A DNA stretch of 24,679 nt from a virus (Duplodnaviria; Caudoviricetes), in the IMG/VR virus record IMGVR_UViG_3300031951_001150, positions 1-24,679 of that record. One strand, written 5' to 3'. This document shows positions 2,890 through 24,057 of the stretch, one piece after another (positions within the stretch are counted from its first letter, which is position 1; the number at the start of each line of letters is the position of its first letter). Position numbers and translations under genes: made by a program. Under the pieces are notes generated by a model that was not told the DNA's origin, did not search any database, and saw only the letters and a program-made list of their open reading frames with translations.

Positions 2890-3280
2890 TGTCGTATATA
2901 TAACATTCGTTTGCTATGTCGTAAATCTCTTCAGAAGGGATATCCAAAGCCTCGGCTACATCTACTGCTTCTTGAAATGATTCAAACCATAGATCCATCG
3001 TCACCTCATAGAAACTTTCGGTGGCGTTAACATCTATGTACAATGCTTTCTCAAAGTCATAGTCTACCTCGTATTCCTTTTCGATATCAGGTATGTCAGC
3101 GGTAACTACATCTACTATCTCCTCAAAGGAAACGATATCGATGAGGTCTTCGTGGTAGTACTCGATGGGCACAAGGAAACCAATTTTTCTAATCGTACCA
3201 TCAAAGGCGTTGAAACTTACATTGCCTTTGTTAACAAGTAGTTTGACTACTTCACGGAATTCAATACTATCTCTTTGCAT
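2876..3280 (-). CDS. Highly acidic hypothetical protein
   Basis: ORF track; strongly Asp/Glu-rich; start uncertain. Confidence 0.7.
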   Translation of the reverse strand: MQRDSIEFREVVKLLVNKGNVSFNAFDGTIRKIGFLVPIEYYHEDLIDIVSFEEIVDVVTADIPDIEKEYEVDYDFEKALYIDVNATESFYEVTMDLWFESFQEAVDVAEALDIPSEEIYDIANECYIYDNEDD

Positions 3281-3873
3281 AATTCATAGGGGATTTGTGA
3301 TCGAACATAAGAACCTTTCAGACCTTGGGTGCCGGTCCTGGAGCCACGAGGGGCTGAGATGTGGCAAGACATACCATTCTTACACGCAGGGCGAGGACTC
3401 CAATCGTAGTTGTTTGTCCAAATATCTGTGGGTTTCATTCGGGTATCGCCATACTGACAATAGGTAACGGTCTGACGGATGTGGGGAAGGACATCGAAGG
3501 AATTCATCTTACGCATCATACCACGAGGATTCTCAATGTACCAAATAAGGTGAGGATTCAAGGTGCGGAAGTAATCGATGATTGCAATGGTCTTCTTGAG
3601 GATCTGTAGACCCATCAGAGCATCTTGTGTTTTGGGTCTCCGATTCATATCCCAATGCTTACCTATAGAGGCAACAGAGAATGTAGTACACGGAGGAGAT
3701 GCCCATATCATATCTGGGATGAATGGTACCTTACTTGTATCAAACTGATTGATATCAACTGCATAGTCAATACCATCAAATGGTGTCCAATCAGAGGAGA
3801 ATACCTCGTGACCTAACTCATCGCATATCTTACCGATACTGCGAGAACCTGCGAATAATTCTAATACCTTCAT
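3247..3873 (-). CDS. Minimal DNA cytosine-C5 methyltransferase-like protein
   Basis: Motif I VLELFAGS, motif IV WASPPCT, motif VI IENP, C-terminal RSQIPYELC; no long variable region. Confidence 0.85.
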   Translation of the reverse strand: MKVLELFAGSRSIGKICDELGHEVFSSDWTPFDGIDYAVDINQFDTSKVPFIPDMIWASPPCTTFSVASIGKHWDMNRRPKTQDALMGLQILKKTIAIIDYFRTLNPHLIWYIENPRGMMRKMNSFDVLPHIRQTVTYCQYGDTRMKPTDIWTNNYDWSPRPACKNGMSCHISAPRGSRTGTQGLKGSYVRSQIPYELCKEIVLNSVK

Positions 3874-6312: not shown

Positions 6313-6347
6313 CAAATATAGTATTATTTATTAAAATTTATTACAAA
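6313..6347 (-). promoter_or_regulatory. Internal Bacteroidota-type promoter
   Basis: Perfect -7 element TATATTTG (6320-6313). The nearest TTTG is 23 nt upstream, longer than the consensus spacer. Confidence 0.55.
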
Positions 6348-6992
6348 TTCAGAATATTGTTCGGCAATGGCTTTTGCGATGCCCGGAAAAGTAGTGTTAC
6401 GAATCTTTTGTCTTTCGATTGGGTCTTTTGTTTTTTGGAATGCATCGGCATACCATTTGGGTTGTCTTTTGGTTCTACCTGTTTTCTTACAAGTCCATTC
6501 GATAAATTCACCTTTGGAAACGATATCTGTGGGAGTGAGAGATGGCAAATTCTTGAGCCATAGGCAAGTAGATTTTTGGAATGGGTCTCCGAACTGCCAC
6601 GGCTGAATGATTTGGTCAGCCTTACGAAACTGAGAGGACATAATACCGATTGGATTCTCAACTGCGATGTGAGGGATAGGAGCATTATACAACTCCATAA
6701 AGAAGTCAATAGCATCTTGGCGATCTTGCTGACGAGTCGGATACTTTTCTGCGTATTCGGGCTTGAACCAACGGTTGCCTGCAAGGGTCAGATAGGTACA
6801 AGGTGGATGGGCAATTAACAAATCCCACTCATATGCATTGATGACATTGCGAACATCAGACTGATAATGGTATGGTGAATTGTCAATTGATGGGACGATG
6901 TCACAAGAGAATGCATCGTGTCCAAGTTTACGGAATTCGTTACGGATAGCACCGCTGAACTCACAAGCGATTAATACTTTTAGTTTTCTCAT
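6324..6992 (-). CDS. Minimal DNA cytosine-C5 methyltransferase-like protein (second family)
   Basis: VLIACEFSG (variant motif I), AHPPCT (IV), VENP (VI), QPWQFG..K.TCLWL and R..TFPGIA.A.A.Q. Confidence 0.85.
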   Translation of the reverse strand: MRKLKVLIACEFSGAIRNEFRKLGHDAFSCDIVPSIDNSPYHYQSDVRNVINAYEWDLLIAHPPCTYLTLAGNRWFKPEYAEKYPTRQQDRQDAIDFFMELYNAPIPHIAVENPIGIMSSQFRKADQIIQPWQFGDPFQKSTCLWLKNLPSLTPTDIVSKGEFIEWTCKKTGRTKRQPKWYADAFQKTKDPIERQKIRNTTFPGIAKAIAEQYSEFVINFNK

Positions 6993-14274: not shown

Positions 14275-14278
14275 TTTG

Positions 14279-14351
14279 AGCCACCTGTCGGATTCGAACC
14301 AACGACCATCTGATTACAAATCAGAAGCTCTACCAACTGAGCTAAAGTGGC
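14279..14351 (-). tRNA. trnT: tRNA-Thr (anticodon UGU); CCA not encoded
   Basis: Full cloverleaf: GCCACTT/AGGTGGC acceptor, GCTCAGTTGGTAGAGC D-arm, TCTGA-TTTGTAA-TCAGA anticodon arm, GTTGG-TTCGAAT-CCGAC T-arm. Confidence 0.95.
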
Positions 14352-14581: not shown

Positions 14582-14848
14582 TTAATTGTTATTTGGTTGT
14601 TCTACTTGTTTGTGTTTCATTACTTCCATTATGGCGTATACGTCAGTCATAGAAATATTGGTTGTTCTGAGGCCGTCCCCTGTCTCCACATAATTGATAG
14701 CATCTTCTACCGTATTTGCATCCACAGGATAGTTTTCCATTTGACCTTTTTTGTTTATCTCAAGGAGTTCCTCCATCGGTTTCTTAGAAGCCCAAACAAA
14801 AGTCTTCATATACCGGAGATAACGCTTTTTGTCAATTGTCTGTTTCAT
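14582..14848 (-). CDS. Hypothetical protein, 88 aa
   Basis: ORF track; directly downstream of a promoter. Confidence 0.75.
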   Translation of the reverse strand: MKQTIDKKRYLRYMKTFVWASKKPMEELLEINKKGQMENYPVDANTVEDAINYVETGDGLRTTNISMTDVYAIMEVMKHKQVEQPNNN

Positions 14849-15962
14849 CTATGGTTGCAAATATACGGTAAGCAATTTGAGGAACAATGGCGTTACCATA
14901 GCCCATTATACTTTCTTTTCTCCACTTAGGAAAGGTAAGTCCGTCCAATTCGTTGGGAAGCCCATCATCTCCGCTACAAAGTGGGGATTTAGTTGGGAAC
15001 CAGCCCCAAGCCTCGGATGGTCCACCTTGTTGGGAACAAACATTGTCATCTGTCTTAATGTCATCTGGAGATTTACATTGTTTTCCTTGTGTCTCTGAGA
15101 TCGAGCCAAGTACGTTTCGGGTTTCGTTGCCGTATTCCAATCCTGAGCGTTCGGTGTCGGTAATACTCCCAAGGTCGCTTTTCCACTCAACATGTTCGCT
15201 GTTCCGTCCGATCTCAACTGACCTTTCCAATCCCCGGCTATCGGTGTCGGTAGCATTTCTCTTAATTTTGGATTTCCCAAACTGAAATTTACTCCACCTT
15301 GTGCTTCCCAACTTTTGCTCGTGTTTTTGTCTATGTGGTCCGATGCTTGTGGTGTCGGTATTATTCCCCTCTTGTAAATGAACCCTGTCGCTACCTCCTG
15401 TGCTAAGGTCCCGGAGTTCCCGAACCGCTGCTCCTTCTTCGATAGGTTCTCGCTGTATCCGTCCATCGCTGCTGGTGTCTTTAGCAATAATCCAAACTCT
15501 GTCCCTTCTGTGCGGAGCATTGATGCCGACAGCTGGTAATACAAACGTTTCGACTTCGTAGCCTTCACCTTCCAAATCAGCGTACACCTCTTCGAGAACC
15601 AATCCGTCCGACCAACTAAGGAGTCCACGAACATTCTCCCCCACGACATACCTTGGTCTGATGTCTCGGATTGCTTGGAGCATATAGGGCCATAAATGGC
15701 GTTCATCTTCTTTTCCCATCCTTTTTCCTGCTGTGGAGAAGGGCTGGCAAGGAAATCCACCAGAGAGGACATCGATTTTTCCTCTCCAAATTCTAAAGTC
15801 AGTTGTCTTGATGTTGTCATAACTTTGGGCCTCAGGCCAATAAAAACTACATAATTTTCTACTAAAAGGATTGATGTCGCAATGAAACTTATTCTCCCAA
15901 CCCATCCACTCCGCTGCTAGATCAAATCCTCCAATTCCACTAAATAAACTACCGTGATTCAT
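14832..15962 (-). CDS. DNA cytosine-C5 methyltransferase, alpha-type chain (motifs I-VIII and X), 376 aa
   Basis: SLFSGIGG (I), GGFPCQPFS (IV), ENV (VI), HRRDRVWII (VIII) and GNAIVPQIA (X); no motif IX in this frame. Start at MNHG, 15962. Confidence 0.92.
   Translation of the reverse strand: MNHGSLFSGIGGFDLAAEWMGWENKFHCDINPFSRKLCSFYWPEAQSYDNIKTTDFRIWRGKIDVLSGGFPCQPFSTAGKRMGKEDERHLWPYMLQAIRDIRPRYVVGENVRGLLSWSDGLVLEEVYADLEGEGYEVETFVLPAVGINAPHRRDRVWIIAKDTSSDGRIQREPIEEGAAVRELRDLSTGGSDRVHLQEGNNTDTTSIGPHRQKHEQKLGSTRWSKFQFGKSKIKRNATDTDSRGLERSVEIGRNSEHVEWKSDLGSITDTERSGLEYGNETRNVLGSISETQGKQCKSPDDIKTDDNVCSQQGGPSEAWGWFPTKSPLCSGDDGLPNELDGLTFPKWRKESIMGYGNAIVPQIAYRIFATIDETDN
14858..14887 (-). promoter_or_regulatory. 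Bacteroidota-type promoter embedded in the 3' end of the methyltransferase gene
   Basis: TTG-N19-TATATTTG-CA. Confidence 0.65.
14906..15820 (-). CDS. Overprinted methyltransferase beta-type chain (variable region plus motif IX) in an alternative frame
   Basis: A 304-codon open frame nested in the alpha gene. It ends with LNPHFVAEMMGFPTNWT (motif IX) and has four (P/K)TPxAxD repeats. True start uncertain. Confidence 0.8.
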   Translation of the reverse strand: MTTSRQLTLEFGEEKSMSSLVDFLASPSPQQEKGWEKKMNAIYGPICSKQSETSDQGMSWGRMFVDSLVGRTDWFSKRCTLIWKVKATKSKRLYYQLSASMLRTEGTEFGLLLKTPAAMDGYSENLSKKEQRFGNSGTLAQEVATGFIYKRGIIPTPQASDHIDKNTSKSWEAQGGVNFSLGNPKLREMLPTPIAGDWKGQLRSDGTANMLSGKATLGVLPTPNAQDWNTATKPETYLARSQRHKENNVNLQMTLRQMTMFVPNKVDHPRLGAGSQLNPHFVAEMMGFPTNWTDLPFLSGEKKV

Positions 15963-16233
15963 GATATTCTCTTTTAAGGCGATCAGCAATCTCCAACGCT
16001 CTCGTATGAGTCTTCATCTCCGTCCTCTTCCCAAATTCCCATTTCTGATGACAATCCATACAGTATAGCATCCAATTTTCGGGATGTTGCCTCAAACTCG
16101 GATAACTTCCTTTGGTAATGATATGTGAGATGAATGCTGGACTGAAATGAGGTAGACGTAGTCCACACTCTTCGCATTGATGATTCTGTCGTGTTGACCA
16201 CATAGCCTTGTACCATTGCAGATCGCCTTTCAT
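15949..16233 (-). CDS. HNH/NinG-like Zn-binding nuclease
   Basis: CEECG...SHII.K..YP.LR..PEN...YC..CH. Confidence 0.75.
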   Translation of the reverse strand: MKGDLQWYKAMWSTRQNHQCEECGLRLPHFSPAFISHIITKGSYPSLRQHPENWMLYCMDCHQKWEFGKRTEMKTHTRALEIADRLKREYHESR

Positions 16234-17213
16234 TAACTGATTCTGAAAACTCTGGTTCCGTTCTTATTCGGTCTCCAAGTTACTTTGGCTACTTCGCTAT
16301 TGATAATCGAGGAGTTACCCATATGTGTCTTAATCATATTGGCGTGTTCTCTCTTATCGTCTTCCAAGCCACTAATCTGAGACCCGATGGCCAAATAGTC
16401 CAAAATGTGTTGGTCAATCTCCGAGGTAGAAGCAATTGTCTTGTCTTCAGGGTTGGAGAATCGCTCGTTCAAGTATTCAGCATAAGCCTCTGTACCATCT
16501 GGCGGTGGTGCATACTGATCGTAGTCACCCCCATTGGCGAATGCTTCACGGCCCAAAAGAACACGATTCCAAAACTCCGTGGTGATATTAATGATTGAGC
16601 TAATGATTTCCTCATCGGCATCGTACTCGTGAACCTTGAAGTTTCTTCCATCTTCCAAAACAACCAAGTACCCCTTTGATACACCAAGCCCCATCATATA
16701 AGTCTGAAGTTGCAAGTAGTAGGATGGCGGTATTCCACCCTCCCATTGTTTGCTACTCCAACCGCTGATAGTCTTGATTTCAGCAATCGCATCTACATTC
16801 TCCAAATTGATTGTAGAATTGCGAACACGGATGTCCTTACTTACAATCAATCGGTCAGGAGAAAAGAACAAATGGGGGAACAATGGGTTCACAATATAAC
16901 CTGTAGGTTCATAAAGATGACGAACTTTTACACCTTTACGATAATTTTCAATCATTGTCTTCTCATCCGTTTCCCAATGTTCAAAAATATCAGCAACGGT
17001 TTCCTCAAGGATTGTTCCCATAAACATCGGCATATTTTCCACCTGTTTTTGTGGAATTACACCAATCTTTTGGTAGTACAACTCTGCTGGAGACTTCCAC
17101 GAGTTTACACCCATCAAGGTTCCAATCTCAGAAGCACCCAAACCCCTTTCACGGAAGTTTAACCACTCCTGATATTGCTCGTCTTTACTTATTCTTACTA
17201 TCTCCAGTTTCAT
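16233..17213 (-). CDS. YqaJ/lambda-exonuclease-family viral recombination nuclease
   Basis: WL..R..GLGASEI..LMG..W.SP..LY..K, G..LE, SPD, EIKT and YY.Q.Q.YM. Confidence 0.92.
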   Translation of the reverse strand: MKLEIVRISKDEQYQEWLNFRERGLGASEIGTLMGVNSWKSPAELYYQKIGVIPQKQVENMPMFMGTILEETVADIFEHWETDEKTMIENYRKGVKVRHLYEPTGYIVNPLFPHLFFSPDRLIVSKDIRVRNSTINLENVDAIAEIKTISGWSSKQWEGGIPPSYYLQLQTYMMGLGVSKGYLVVLEDGRNFKVHEYDADEEIISSIINITTEFWNRVLLGREAFANGGDYDQYAPPPDGTEAYAEYLNERFSNPEDKTIASTSEIDQHILDYLAIGSQISGLEDDKREHANMIKTHMGNSSIINSEVAKVTWRPNKNGTRVFRIS

Positions 17214-22707: not shown

Positions 22708-24057
22708 ATGGCAACTATTTCAAACCTTCCATTAAGTCAATCTTTATTGCTTAAAGGACTTTCATTGCCTAACAAAATGGCAATGGTTTATAGCCAAGAC
22801 TTCGGCTATAACGTCTTGACCCAGTTGACTTCTAAATTGGCGAGTTCTATCTCTAGCCCACAGGCAAAAGTAGAAATCTCTTCTTTGGGAAACTTGGGTG
22901 TTTACTCTAAAATTACTGCCAACGGTGCAATTGTTACTGGTACATCTTTGATGTCTGTACCTGTACAAGATGCAAGCAAATTCCGTATTGGTGATATCGT
23001 TGCTGATGGTAACTTGGTTCAAGCGTTGGTTACTGATGTGGATTTTTCTGGTAACAAAATTTTTGTTGCTCCTCACACAACTGCAACTTTGACTGCTGGT
23101 ACCCACTTTGTGGCTAACACTCAGGCTAAGCGTTTCTTTGATGCTTCTGCTAACCGTAGCTCAACTGGTAAAACCACTTTGAACTACACACCTGATACCG
23201 ACTTTGCTTTGACTGCGGTAACTCGTGAAAGTTCACACCAATCTCGTAGAGATCGTATCGCTTCTTTCGTGAAGTGGAATGGCGATTTCTGGTGGAGGTC
23301 TTATGACGATTTGACTTTGAAGGCTTTCGCTAAACAGTTGGAGTATAAATATGCTTTCTCTGAGCGTGCTATCAAAACTGGACCTAATGGTGAATACTTC
23401 ACTACTGGTGGTTTGCGTTGGTCAATCATCAACAACGGTGGTTCTTATATGTCTTTGACTTCTGAGTTGACTCAGTCTGTATTCAACGACTTCTTGGAGC
23501 AAATGGTTCGTGTATCTGCTGAAGGTGGACGTAAATTGGTTGCTTTGATGGGATCTGCTGCTATGGCTCGTTTGCAAACTATCTTGGGTGACTACATTAA
23601 GTTCGCTGGTACTGCTAACACCTTGGGTGGAACTTCAGTAACTGGTTTGAACGTAATGAAGTATGCTTACGCTGGTTTGGAAATCGAATTCGTTCGTTGG
23701 TCTTTGTTGGATGACGAGATGTTCCGTGGTGAATTGTCTGCCGTTAACGGTAAGCCTCGTATGAGTAACTCTATTTACTTCATCGACTTGACTCCTATCC
23801 CTGCTGCTGATGGTTCTGGAACTATTGCTGCTCTTCAGAAATACCACTTCAACCAAGATGAGTTGCTTGCCAACTACGTTCCTGGTATGATTGGTTTGGA
23901 GTCTAGCGATCCTTCAACCATTAAGGCTGCTTTGAGCGGTGGTCAGTCTGTATCTTTGGGTACTTCTGATGTTGACGGAGTTGACTTCCACATTCTTTCT
24001 GACTGTGGTTTGTATTGTGTTGCAGACAAAATGGGTCTGATTGAATTTGCAATCTAA
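22708..24057 (+). CDS. Major capsid protein, 449 aa
   Basis: Position; strong high-expression codon bias (GCT/ACT/GGT/TTG); TGGLR..I and LT...FNDFL motifs like SU10/DUF5309-type capsids. Confidence 0.88.
   Translation: MATISNLPLSQSLLLKGLSLPNKMAMVYSQDFGYNVLTQLTSKLASSISSPQAKVEISSLGNLGVYSKITANGAIVTGTSLMSVPVQDASKFRIGDIVADGNLVQALVTDVDFSGNKIFVAPHTTATLTAGTHFVANTQAKRFFDASANRSSTGKTTLNYTPDTDFALTAVTRESSHQSRRDRIASFVKWNGDFWWRSYDDLTLKAFAKQLEYKYAFSERAIKTGPNGEYFTTGGLRWSIINNGGSYMSLTSELTQSVFNDFLEQMVRVSAEGGRKLVALMGSAAMARLQTILGDYIKFAGTANTLGGTSVTGLNVMKYAYAGLEIEFVRWSLLDDEMFRGELSAVNGKPRMSNSIYFIDLTPIPAADGSGTIAALQKYHFNQDELLANYVPGMIGLESSDPSTIKAALSGGQSVSLGTSDVDGVDFHILSDCGLYCVADKMGLIEFAI

Follow-up and report, generated by a model that had tools for sequence, protein, structure and literature searches.

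Candidate target-recognition modules move among phage C5-methyltransferase genes split over two nested reading frames

Why would a phage methyltransferase gene carry, in a frame other than that of its catalytic core, a tandem series of short units that share only their opening peptide motif? The locus lies in a 24,679-nt stretch of freshwater tailed-phage DNA (the window), which also contains a portal protein gene (phrog_6547). The original prediction held that the units are swappable target-recognition domains of a multispecific methyltransferase, recombined at a shared junction, with the outer frame serving as a tolerant linker. Our sequence comparisons suggest that the gene probably encodes a shuffled multispecific anti-restriction methylase split over two nested frames, with the modules as alternative target-recognition units.

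Both frames are read from the minus strand, and the names of the motifs in the outer (alpha) chain follow standard C5 numbering, which we take to apply:

14832..15962, minus strand: alpha chain, encoded by the outer ORF; counted from the ATG at 15962 it has 376 aa, and a TTG at 15989 lies in frame further upstream
15927-15944, minus strand: alpha motif I
15744-15758, minus strand: alpha motif IV (PCQ)
15630-15638, minus strand: alpha motif VI (ENV)
15498-15515, minus strand: alpha motif VIII
14993..15487, minus strand: alpha linker, where the outer frame runs through the module array; its sequence is variable and hydrophilic and has no stops
14883-14897, minus strand: alpha motif X
14906..15820, minus strand: nested ORF (beta chain), 304 aa in the +1 frame, made up of a leader, four modules and a motif IX-like segment
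15488..15820, minus strand: leader of beta, 111 aa, sharing its DNA with the catalytic core of alpha
14930..14992, minus strand: beta motif IX-like segment (LNP..F..EMMGFP..W), with invariant alignment columns

Alpha matches PF00145 (E 4.9e-38), phrog_363 (E 6.1e-66) and M.HhaI (E 4e-16); it has C5-cytosine motifs I to VIII, then the linker, then motif X, and is without motif IX. The PF00145 motifs I, IV (PC), VI (ENV) and VIII occur in order and are invariant across 87 aligned alpha chains. Beta matches phrog_1008, "DNA methyltransferase" (E 1.5e-26), and in single-chain relatives the counterpart of its IX-like segment is the motif-IX region (alignment probability 96%, E 4.4e-9). Motifs IX and X are both present, X in alpha and the IX-like segment in beta.

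The two frames are both open and separately constrained as coding sequence. Over the modules, the third frame has 14 stops; the outer frame was open over the window's modules in 0 of 5000 null recodings. All 97 complete distinct viral relatives have beta in the +1 frame, which is open for at least 100 codons over the catalytic core in 96 of them, versus 2.7% expected. The hydrophobic share is 0.25 in the alpha linker versus 0.42 in the alpha core. Third-position entropy at conserved alpha codons, based on small counts (4 to 22 codons per region), drops from 1.37 bits before the overlap to 0.91 at codons 96-162 and to a nearly frozen 0.36 under motif IX, and is 1.64 after the beta stop. The viral set comprised 157 loci plus the window, with a parsable catalytic motif in 153: both frames reach motifs IX and X in 143 of these, in 8 no motif IX could be parsed (6 of these stop at the edge of their contig), and in 2 the outer frame is broken. 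Among 82 genome and phage loci, 7 were incomplete and 72 of the 75 parsed have the same nested layout; of the remaining three, two yielded no motif X in the catalytic frame, and the third is frameshifted. Three loci (L234, L042 and L144) are frameshifted or broken outer-frame copies that have likely decayed.

This layout resembles that of M.EcoHK31I, an Escherichia coli enzyme (YGGCCR) whose beta lies wholly inside alpha in another frame, with motifs I-VIII and X in alpha and motif IX in beta; the available text of PMC2836561 and PMC3404938 places its recognition domain in alpha and describes one specificity. The likeness is one of layout: a second ORF inside the first in another frame, motif IX inner and motif X outer. 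The phage gene differs in that beta bears the variable array and selection favors beta, and no E. coli match was found among 22 plasmid records at E 1e-20. By analogy, the two phage chains likely assemble into one enzyme.

The modules of beta, and the DNA repeats at their starts, are as follows (module lengths run from start to start, and the last module includes the linker to motif IX):

15365..15487, minus strand: type 1 module of 41 aa, beginning LLKTP; it leads the array in 59 of the 60 viral arrays that contain type 1
15257..15364, minus strand: module of type 9, 36 aa, starts IIPTP
15167..15256, minus strand: module of type 10, 30 aa, starts MLPTP
14993..15166, minus strand: module of type 0, beginning VLPTP; 58 aa together with the linker that leads to motif IX
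15474..15479, plus strand: partial junction core between the leader and the first module, with KTP in place of PTP
15351..15360, plus strand: junction core between types 1 and 9
15243..15252, plus strand: junction core between types 9 and 10
15153..15162, plus strand: junction core between types 10 and 0, GGTGTCGGTA, which is the LPTP codons of the minus strand

The four starts reported in the inner frame (LLKTPAAMD, IIPTPQASD, MLPTPIAGD and VLPTPNAQD) are present as described, and so are the three copies of GGTGTCGGTA at 15153, 15243 and 15351; there is no other copy on either strand of the 24,679 bases. The partial copy reported at 15474, GGTGTC, is also there, with one further copy at 3782. 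When the inner ORF was shuffled 5000 times with dinucleotides preserved, just 8 shuffles contained any 10-mer three times. Spacings of 90, 108 and 123 were likewise confirmed; they are multiples of 3 because the repeat is a peptide motif. The segments between junctions had been called unrelated; so they are to one another within this gene, but other phages carry close relatives of every one of them. Type 1 is present in 24 of 66 phage clades and sits internally in one array (P0171); type 0 is last in 24 viral arrays, internal in 8 and alone in 4.

Number and order vary, as the original prediction anticipated, and the number is not fixed across homologs. The 25 closest distinct relatives (alpha-core identity of at least 84%) show 11 arrangements, which include 1-0, 1-9-0, 1-9-10-0 (that of the window), 1-12-10-0, 11-12-9-0 and 1-13-9-10-0. 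Viral arrays (n = 160) have 1 to 6 modules (7, 67, 57, 21, 6 and 2 arrays, respectively), and the pairs 0/3, 3/10, 9/13 and 3/12 are found in both orders; 63 of these arrays were added by module-directed searches (160 new loci, with 67 duplicates and 30 incomplete), which were seeded with parts of the window gene, and the counts are no census. Together, 170 viral, genome and phage arrays (including the non-nested array of Jarcob) hold 436 modules of 144 types, defined by single linkage at 55%, with a median length of 41 aa; some modules have just 19-30 aa. The best 120 of 1932 beta-like proteins have 1 to 7 modules. In 163 of 164 arrays there is at least one module, as the way the set was assembled dictates; among the 75 parsed genome loci, a single one has none. 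Modules are net basic (K+R 13.6% versus D+E 9.5%).

Arrays avoid repetition: none of 93 has a repeated type, versus 9.1 in shuffles (minimum 1 in 2000 shuffles), and the larger sets contain two exceptions, L159 and L275, the former being 1 of 164 arrays. Position is partly fixed, with 19 of 36 types of at least three members keeping one position class; types 0, 3, 5, 7 and 21 occur in both last and internal positions. An oversized module of 145 aa lies inside some arrays (L347:8235-8669, L386:7196-7630, L387 and P0162); its HTH_3 match, at E 0.011-0.023, is weak and falls short of the cut-off.

Exchange at the shared junction had been proposed, and the breakpoints do fall inside the xLPTP codons; as a DNA sequence, however, TACCGACACC is no fixed site, since it is exact in 23 of 247 junctions and recurs because LPTP codons repeat. 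We compared 150 internal junctions codon by codon. Where the previous module is the same, agreement at codons -8 to -2 is 0.61-0.86 per codon versus 0.25-0.47, and identity tracks the previous module up to codon -1; where the next module is the same, agreement begins at codon +5 (0.82 versus 0.36). At codons 0-4 (xLPTP), all pair classes are equal. Ancestry therefore switches across the xLPTP codons, and the predicted breakpoint is correct. At silent positions, two junctions from the same gene resemble each other no more than two from different genes do (2.03 versus 1.98 of 5; 924 of 2000 permutations). The junction is a degenerate stretch of LPTP codons, ∼15 nt long, in which a protein motif doubles as short homology.

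Cuts in the xLPTP codons give an outer-frame stop in 0-0.09% of cases at 15 of 16 positions and in 1.5% at one, versus up to 5.7% outside these codons; the rate is zero by construction at every third position. A fixed site of the shufflon or invertase type, kept at synonymous positions, was rejected: third positions vary, and few of the copies are exact. No copy-number variants of the array were seen in four contig sets, where four modules are kept and where contigs drop rare variants. One piece of depth 3.3 in the set X6 skips the 108-nt module 9; it comes from a roughly 87% identical relative, not the window phage.

Selection acts on the modules mainly through the inner frame. Within module types, amino acid difference is 12.3% in the inner frame versus 39.5% in the outer frame (741 non-independent pairs), and 11,560 of 17,716 base differences in these related pairs, again non-independent, are at inner third positions. 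The outer frame, different in 39.5% of its residues and yet stop-free, behaves like the tolerant linker that had been predicted. In this frame the conservation of first and internal modules equals that of last ones, with differences of 2-8% for types 1, 2, 10 and 11. Type 1 is about 90% identical across distant backbones, and its third positions agree in about half.

Modules move between distant enzyme backbones. On a tree built on 157 alpha cores, type 9 requires 8 changes for 8 carriers (shuffled mean, 7.8) and type 10 requires 18 for 19 carriers (shuffled mean, 18.1); types 1 and 0 are partly inherited (24 versus 47.6 and 13 versus 32.8 in shuffles). A single clade of type 10 carriers was rejected (p-AU 1.4e-38; 19 carriers, 25 sampled others, quick tree). 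Loss alone would be insufficient to account for the arrays, because none exceeds seven of over 140 types.

Such movement is reminiscent of domain movement (DoMo) of recognition domains in Type I and IIG specificity genes of Helicobacter pylori and other species, where, according to the available text of PMC3077401, domains move and are lost or gained via flanking repeats. Here, too, the same module occurs in different positions and on different backbones, the number varies, breakpoints lie in shared flanks, and modules change gene and are gained or lost at those flanks. DoMo systems, however, involve another enzyme class, larger domains, bacterial chromosomes, two or three positions and defined DNA repeats, whereas the window's family is a phage C5 enzyme with between 1 and 7 positions; its junction consists of 15 nt of degenerate codons, and a second frame has to remain open.

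What the modules do is best indicated by their place in single-chain relatives. A search entered with mycobacteriophage Jarcob yielded 5975 related proteins. Sequence patterns applied to the best 120 placed every motif on one chain in 62, missed the N-terminal one in 17 and left 41 unparsed. In the 62 single-chain proteins, which are of mycobacterial-phage type, most of the variable region that separates motif VIII from motif IX is taken up by LPTP modules, 1 to 5 in number. The module profile from the window's family matches 61 of the 62 and 0 of their shuffles, and the nested and single-chain families align at a probability of 96%. The predicted model of one single-chain protein has the M.HhaI fold (Z 22.4, rmsd 3.4, 252 aligned). 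C5 enzymes have their recognition domain in the region between motifs VIII and IX, according to the available text of PMC2790894 and PMC3404938; the position of the modules in single-chain relatives is thus the best support for modules as recognition domains. Annotated "DNA methylase" genes of mycobacteriophages (ShiLan gp70, Akhila, Madiba and Ramsey types) share the LPTP modules and a related motif IX but differ in having modules and motifs IX and X in the catalytic frame; they are known by annotation, and we found no specificity test of these enzymes in the literature searched. Although ShiLan gp70 (L241:768-1226) has all its motifs in one chain, its core is still overlapped in +1 by an ORF that comprises a beta-like leader and an LLPTP module; this suggests a frameshift as the link between single-chain and nested genes. 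Relative to ShiLan, Jarcob (L158:1495-2481) has an extra frameshift between motifs VI and VIII.

Several results count against that role, the first being the lack of a sequence match to known recognition domains. In Bacillus phage C5 enzymes, tandem recognition domains confer several targets, and these multispecific enzymes are described as protecting against many restriction systems (available text of PMC8936443 and PMC12707154). The likeness to them drawn in the original prediction stands for architecture but not for homology: modules against the SPbeta MtbP recognition domains gave an hhalign probability of 0.1 and profile E values of 0.095 and 0.16 on one sequence, with short, diverse units leaving such a comparison little power. 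M.SPR, M.phi3T, M.H2I and SPbeta MtbP resemble the window gene as phage orphan C5 enzymes with tandem ∼40-aa units in a variable region; they are, however, single polypeptides of proven multispecificity, whereas the window gene has two frames and a predicted multispecificity, and the module pool of its family exceeds 140 types. Sequence searches of the PDB with beta and with the last module found nothing, and those of the ESM Atlas returned unnamed viral clusters only. Fold searches gave whole-protein matches only and did not place LPTP on the TL dipeptide of M.HhaI described in the available part of PMC2790894. AlphaFold of beta alone was uninformative (mean pLDDT 48). Modules are mostly at pLDDT <50 in both models, that of beta and that of a single-chain protein (P0025); the latter has a confident core, and its modules exceed 50 at residues 191-200, the first LLPTP (mean, 76).

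Nor did the flanking phage DNA tie modules to motifs: 0 of 598 clade-level tests survived (best p 0.003; 162 genomes, 66 clades), in a design that would detect little should modules be exchanged more quickly than the composition of genomes shifts. Locus-level module-motif signals tracked phage clade and were gone at clade level. Module number did not correlate with site avoidance (rho -0.09, p 0.37). Carriers of type 2 (L063 and L280-L301) nearly lack CCGG in their flanks in 3 of 4 clades, which was nonsignificant after correction; one of the clades was found after the idea arose (5 seen versus 37 expected), and about a quarter of clades without type 2 likewise lack CCGG.

The window itself is without GCGC (0 versus 28 expected), CGCG (0 versus 25) and CGNCG, and CATG (6 versus 112), AGCT (20 versus 73), ACGT (18 versus 65) and CTAG (16 versus 59) are rare; the sets of avoided words differ between phage clades. 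Palindrome avoidance of such strength is the pattern of strong restriction pressure. It fits an anti-restriction role, without a tie to the nested methyltransferase gene in particular; the window has two other C5-like genes. Features of the surrounding window are as follows:

1922-2671: serine recombinase gene
3247-3873, minus strand: short C5-methyltransferase-like gene without a long variable region (phrog_757, E 9.5e-31; 208 aa)
6324-6992, minus strand: second such gene (phrog_757, E 1.2e-60; 222 aa)
14278-14351, minus strand: tRNA-Thr(tgt) gene, with the methyltransferase 480 bases upstream of it
15949-17213, minus strand: HNH gene, overlapping the methyltransferase start and preceded by a YqaJ-type exonuclease gene
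22708-24057, plus strand: probable major capsid protein (weak Crassvirus capsid match, E 0.0064; no PHROG match)

The HNH and YqaJ-type genes beside the methyltransferase possibly provide a recombination context. No partner restriction gene was recognized adjoining the nested gene, a promoter scan gave 0 sites, and two terminator-like hairpins (plus strand) are at chance level. At least 94% of the methyltransferase gene's words are present in 14 of the 24 sequencing runs listed (11 with lake or freshwater labels, 3 with fungus metagenome labels); RNA runs hold only small shares of them. The host is likely a member of the Bacteroidota, because the majority of 80 genome loci with related genes bear Bacteroidota titles.

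In the multispecific enzyme that we favor, both chains would be made and bind each other, as in M.EcoHK31I, and one module at a time would dock by its LPTP beside the active site and read DNA with a variable loop and helix. Co-infecting phages would exchange modules by recombining over the roughly 15 nt that shared codons provide, perhaps through YqaJ-type recombination genes of the phage itself, and the benefit would be protection of phage DNA from several host restriction enzymes. An unlikely alternative use of the same array is that modules contact DNA jointly or loosely to give one relaxed pattern, or that only the module adjacent to motif IX is used and the others are reserve. The preferred places of many types (19 of 36; type 1 first in 59 of 60) would suit this, as would the shortness of modules for a whole recognition domain, the lack of a module-motif link and, by analogy, the relaxed specificity of other prophage C5 enzymes (available text of PMC3925955). 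First and internal modules are nevertheless conserved like last ones, which is unexpected of a silent reserve, and types 0, 3, 5, 7 and 21 serve in both last and internal positions in arrays that avoid repeated types. We consider it quite improbable that the modules are protein-binding or regulatory peptides carried on beta (for phage replication proteins or as host-defense decoys), with specificity elsewhere, for example in alpha. Here the placement of the M.EcoHK31I recognition domain in alpha (available text of PMC2836561 and PMC3404938), the lack of homology to known recognition domains and the low model confidence have to be set against an alpha segment between motifs VIII and X that is a poor recognition candidate, because it is the least constrained reading and varies in length between relatives. 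Moreover, modules fill most of the single-chain variable region, just 1 of 75 genome loci is without one, and they are net basic, with the weak, sub-cut-off HTH_3 match (E 0.011-0.023) in one oversized module.

A functionless array, either tolerated or selfish, at an in-frame insertion hot spot formed by the LPTP codons is barely credible: free movement over the tree and the near absence of outer-frame stops from xLPTP cuts agree with it, but purifying selection, visible as strong amino acid conservation with synonymous divergence, largely refutes it, and arrays are without repeated types and modules without terminal repeats or a mobility gene. For the exchange step only, a site-specific recombinase that acts on a fixed TACCGACACC site in programmed switching within one lineage is highly improbable; the three exact copies in the window gene and the serine recombinase gene at 1922-2671 would favor it, but the exact 10-mer is limited to 23 of 247 junctions, within-gene junctions are no more alike than others (924 of 2000 permutations), and in four runs the main contigs retain all four modules.

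Each of the three ingredients has a precedent: nested alpha/beta enzymes, tandem recognition domains, and domain movement bounded by repeats. We found neither the three combined nor this module family in the literature searched, to which REBASE, subscription papers and supplements did not belong, and the available text of PMC5537653, PMC6536676, PMC3925955, PMC2884959 and PMC6070908 does not describe the nested module layout. If each module reads its own site, the family would be a far larger and faster-shuffling version of the few Bacillus phage multispecific methylases, combined with the rare two-chain nested arrangement for which a single E. coli enzyme is the known case; it would reveal the way in which many environmental phages keep up with the restriction systems of their hosts, and its 144 types in 436 modules would be a natural library of small swappable specificity units. 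The way C5 methylase specificity is encoded would then be directly testable with short synthetic cassettes. A broader proposal, which we hold tentatively as possible, is that phages of Bacteroidota and Actinobacteria may share a plug-in methylation code, in which hundreds of 30-45-aa modules unlike known domains would each specify one 5mC motif and be swapped across unrelated phages via a stop-proof five-codon junction, retuning anti-restriction cover for each host; reading such a code would lead to a modular set of programmable C5 methylases. Even without multispecificity, a recombining domain array with two open frames is a clear case of overlapping-gene evolvability.

The nested chain is also a matter of annotation, being absent from some records and unnamed in most. 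PHROG 1008 (beta) and PHROG 363 (alpha) are both labelled DNA methyltransferase, and the labels are silent on nesting and modules. The best 120 beta relatives, of 1932 beta-like proteins, are unnamed or "hypothetical protein", and in Bacteroides phage BS-TP4 (PQ571277; L159) the annotation covers the outer frame only, so that the nested chain with its modules and motif IX is absent from the record.
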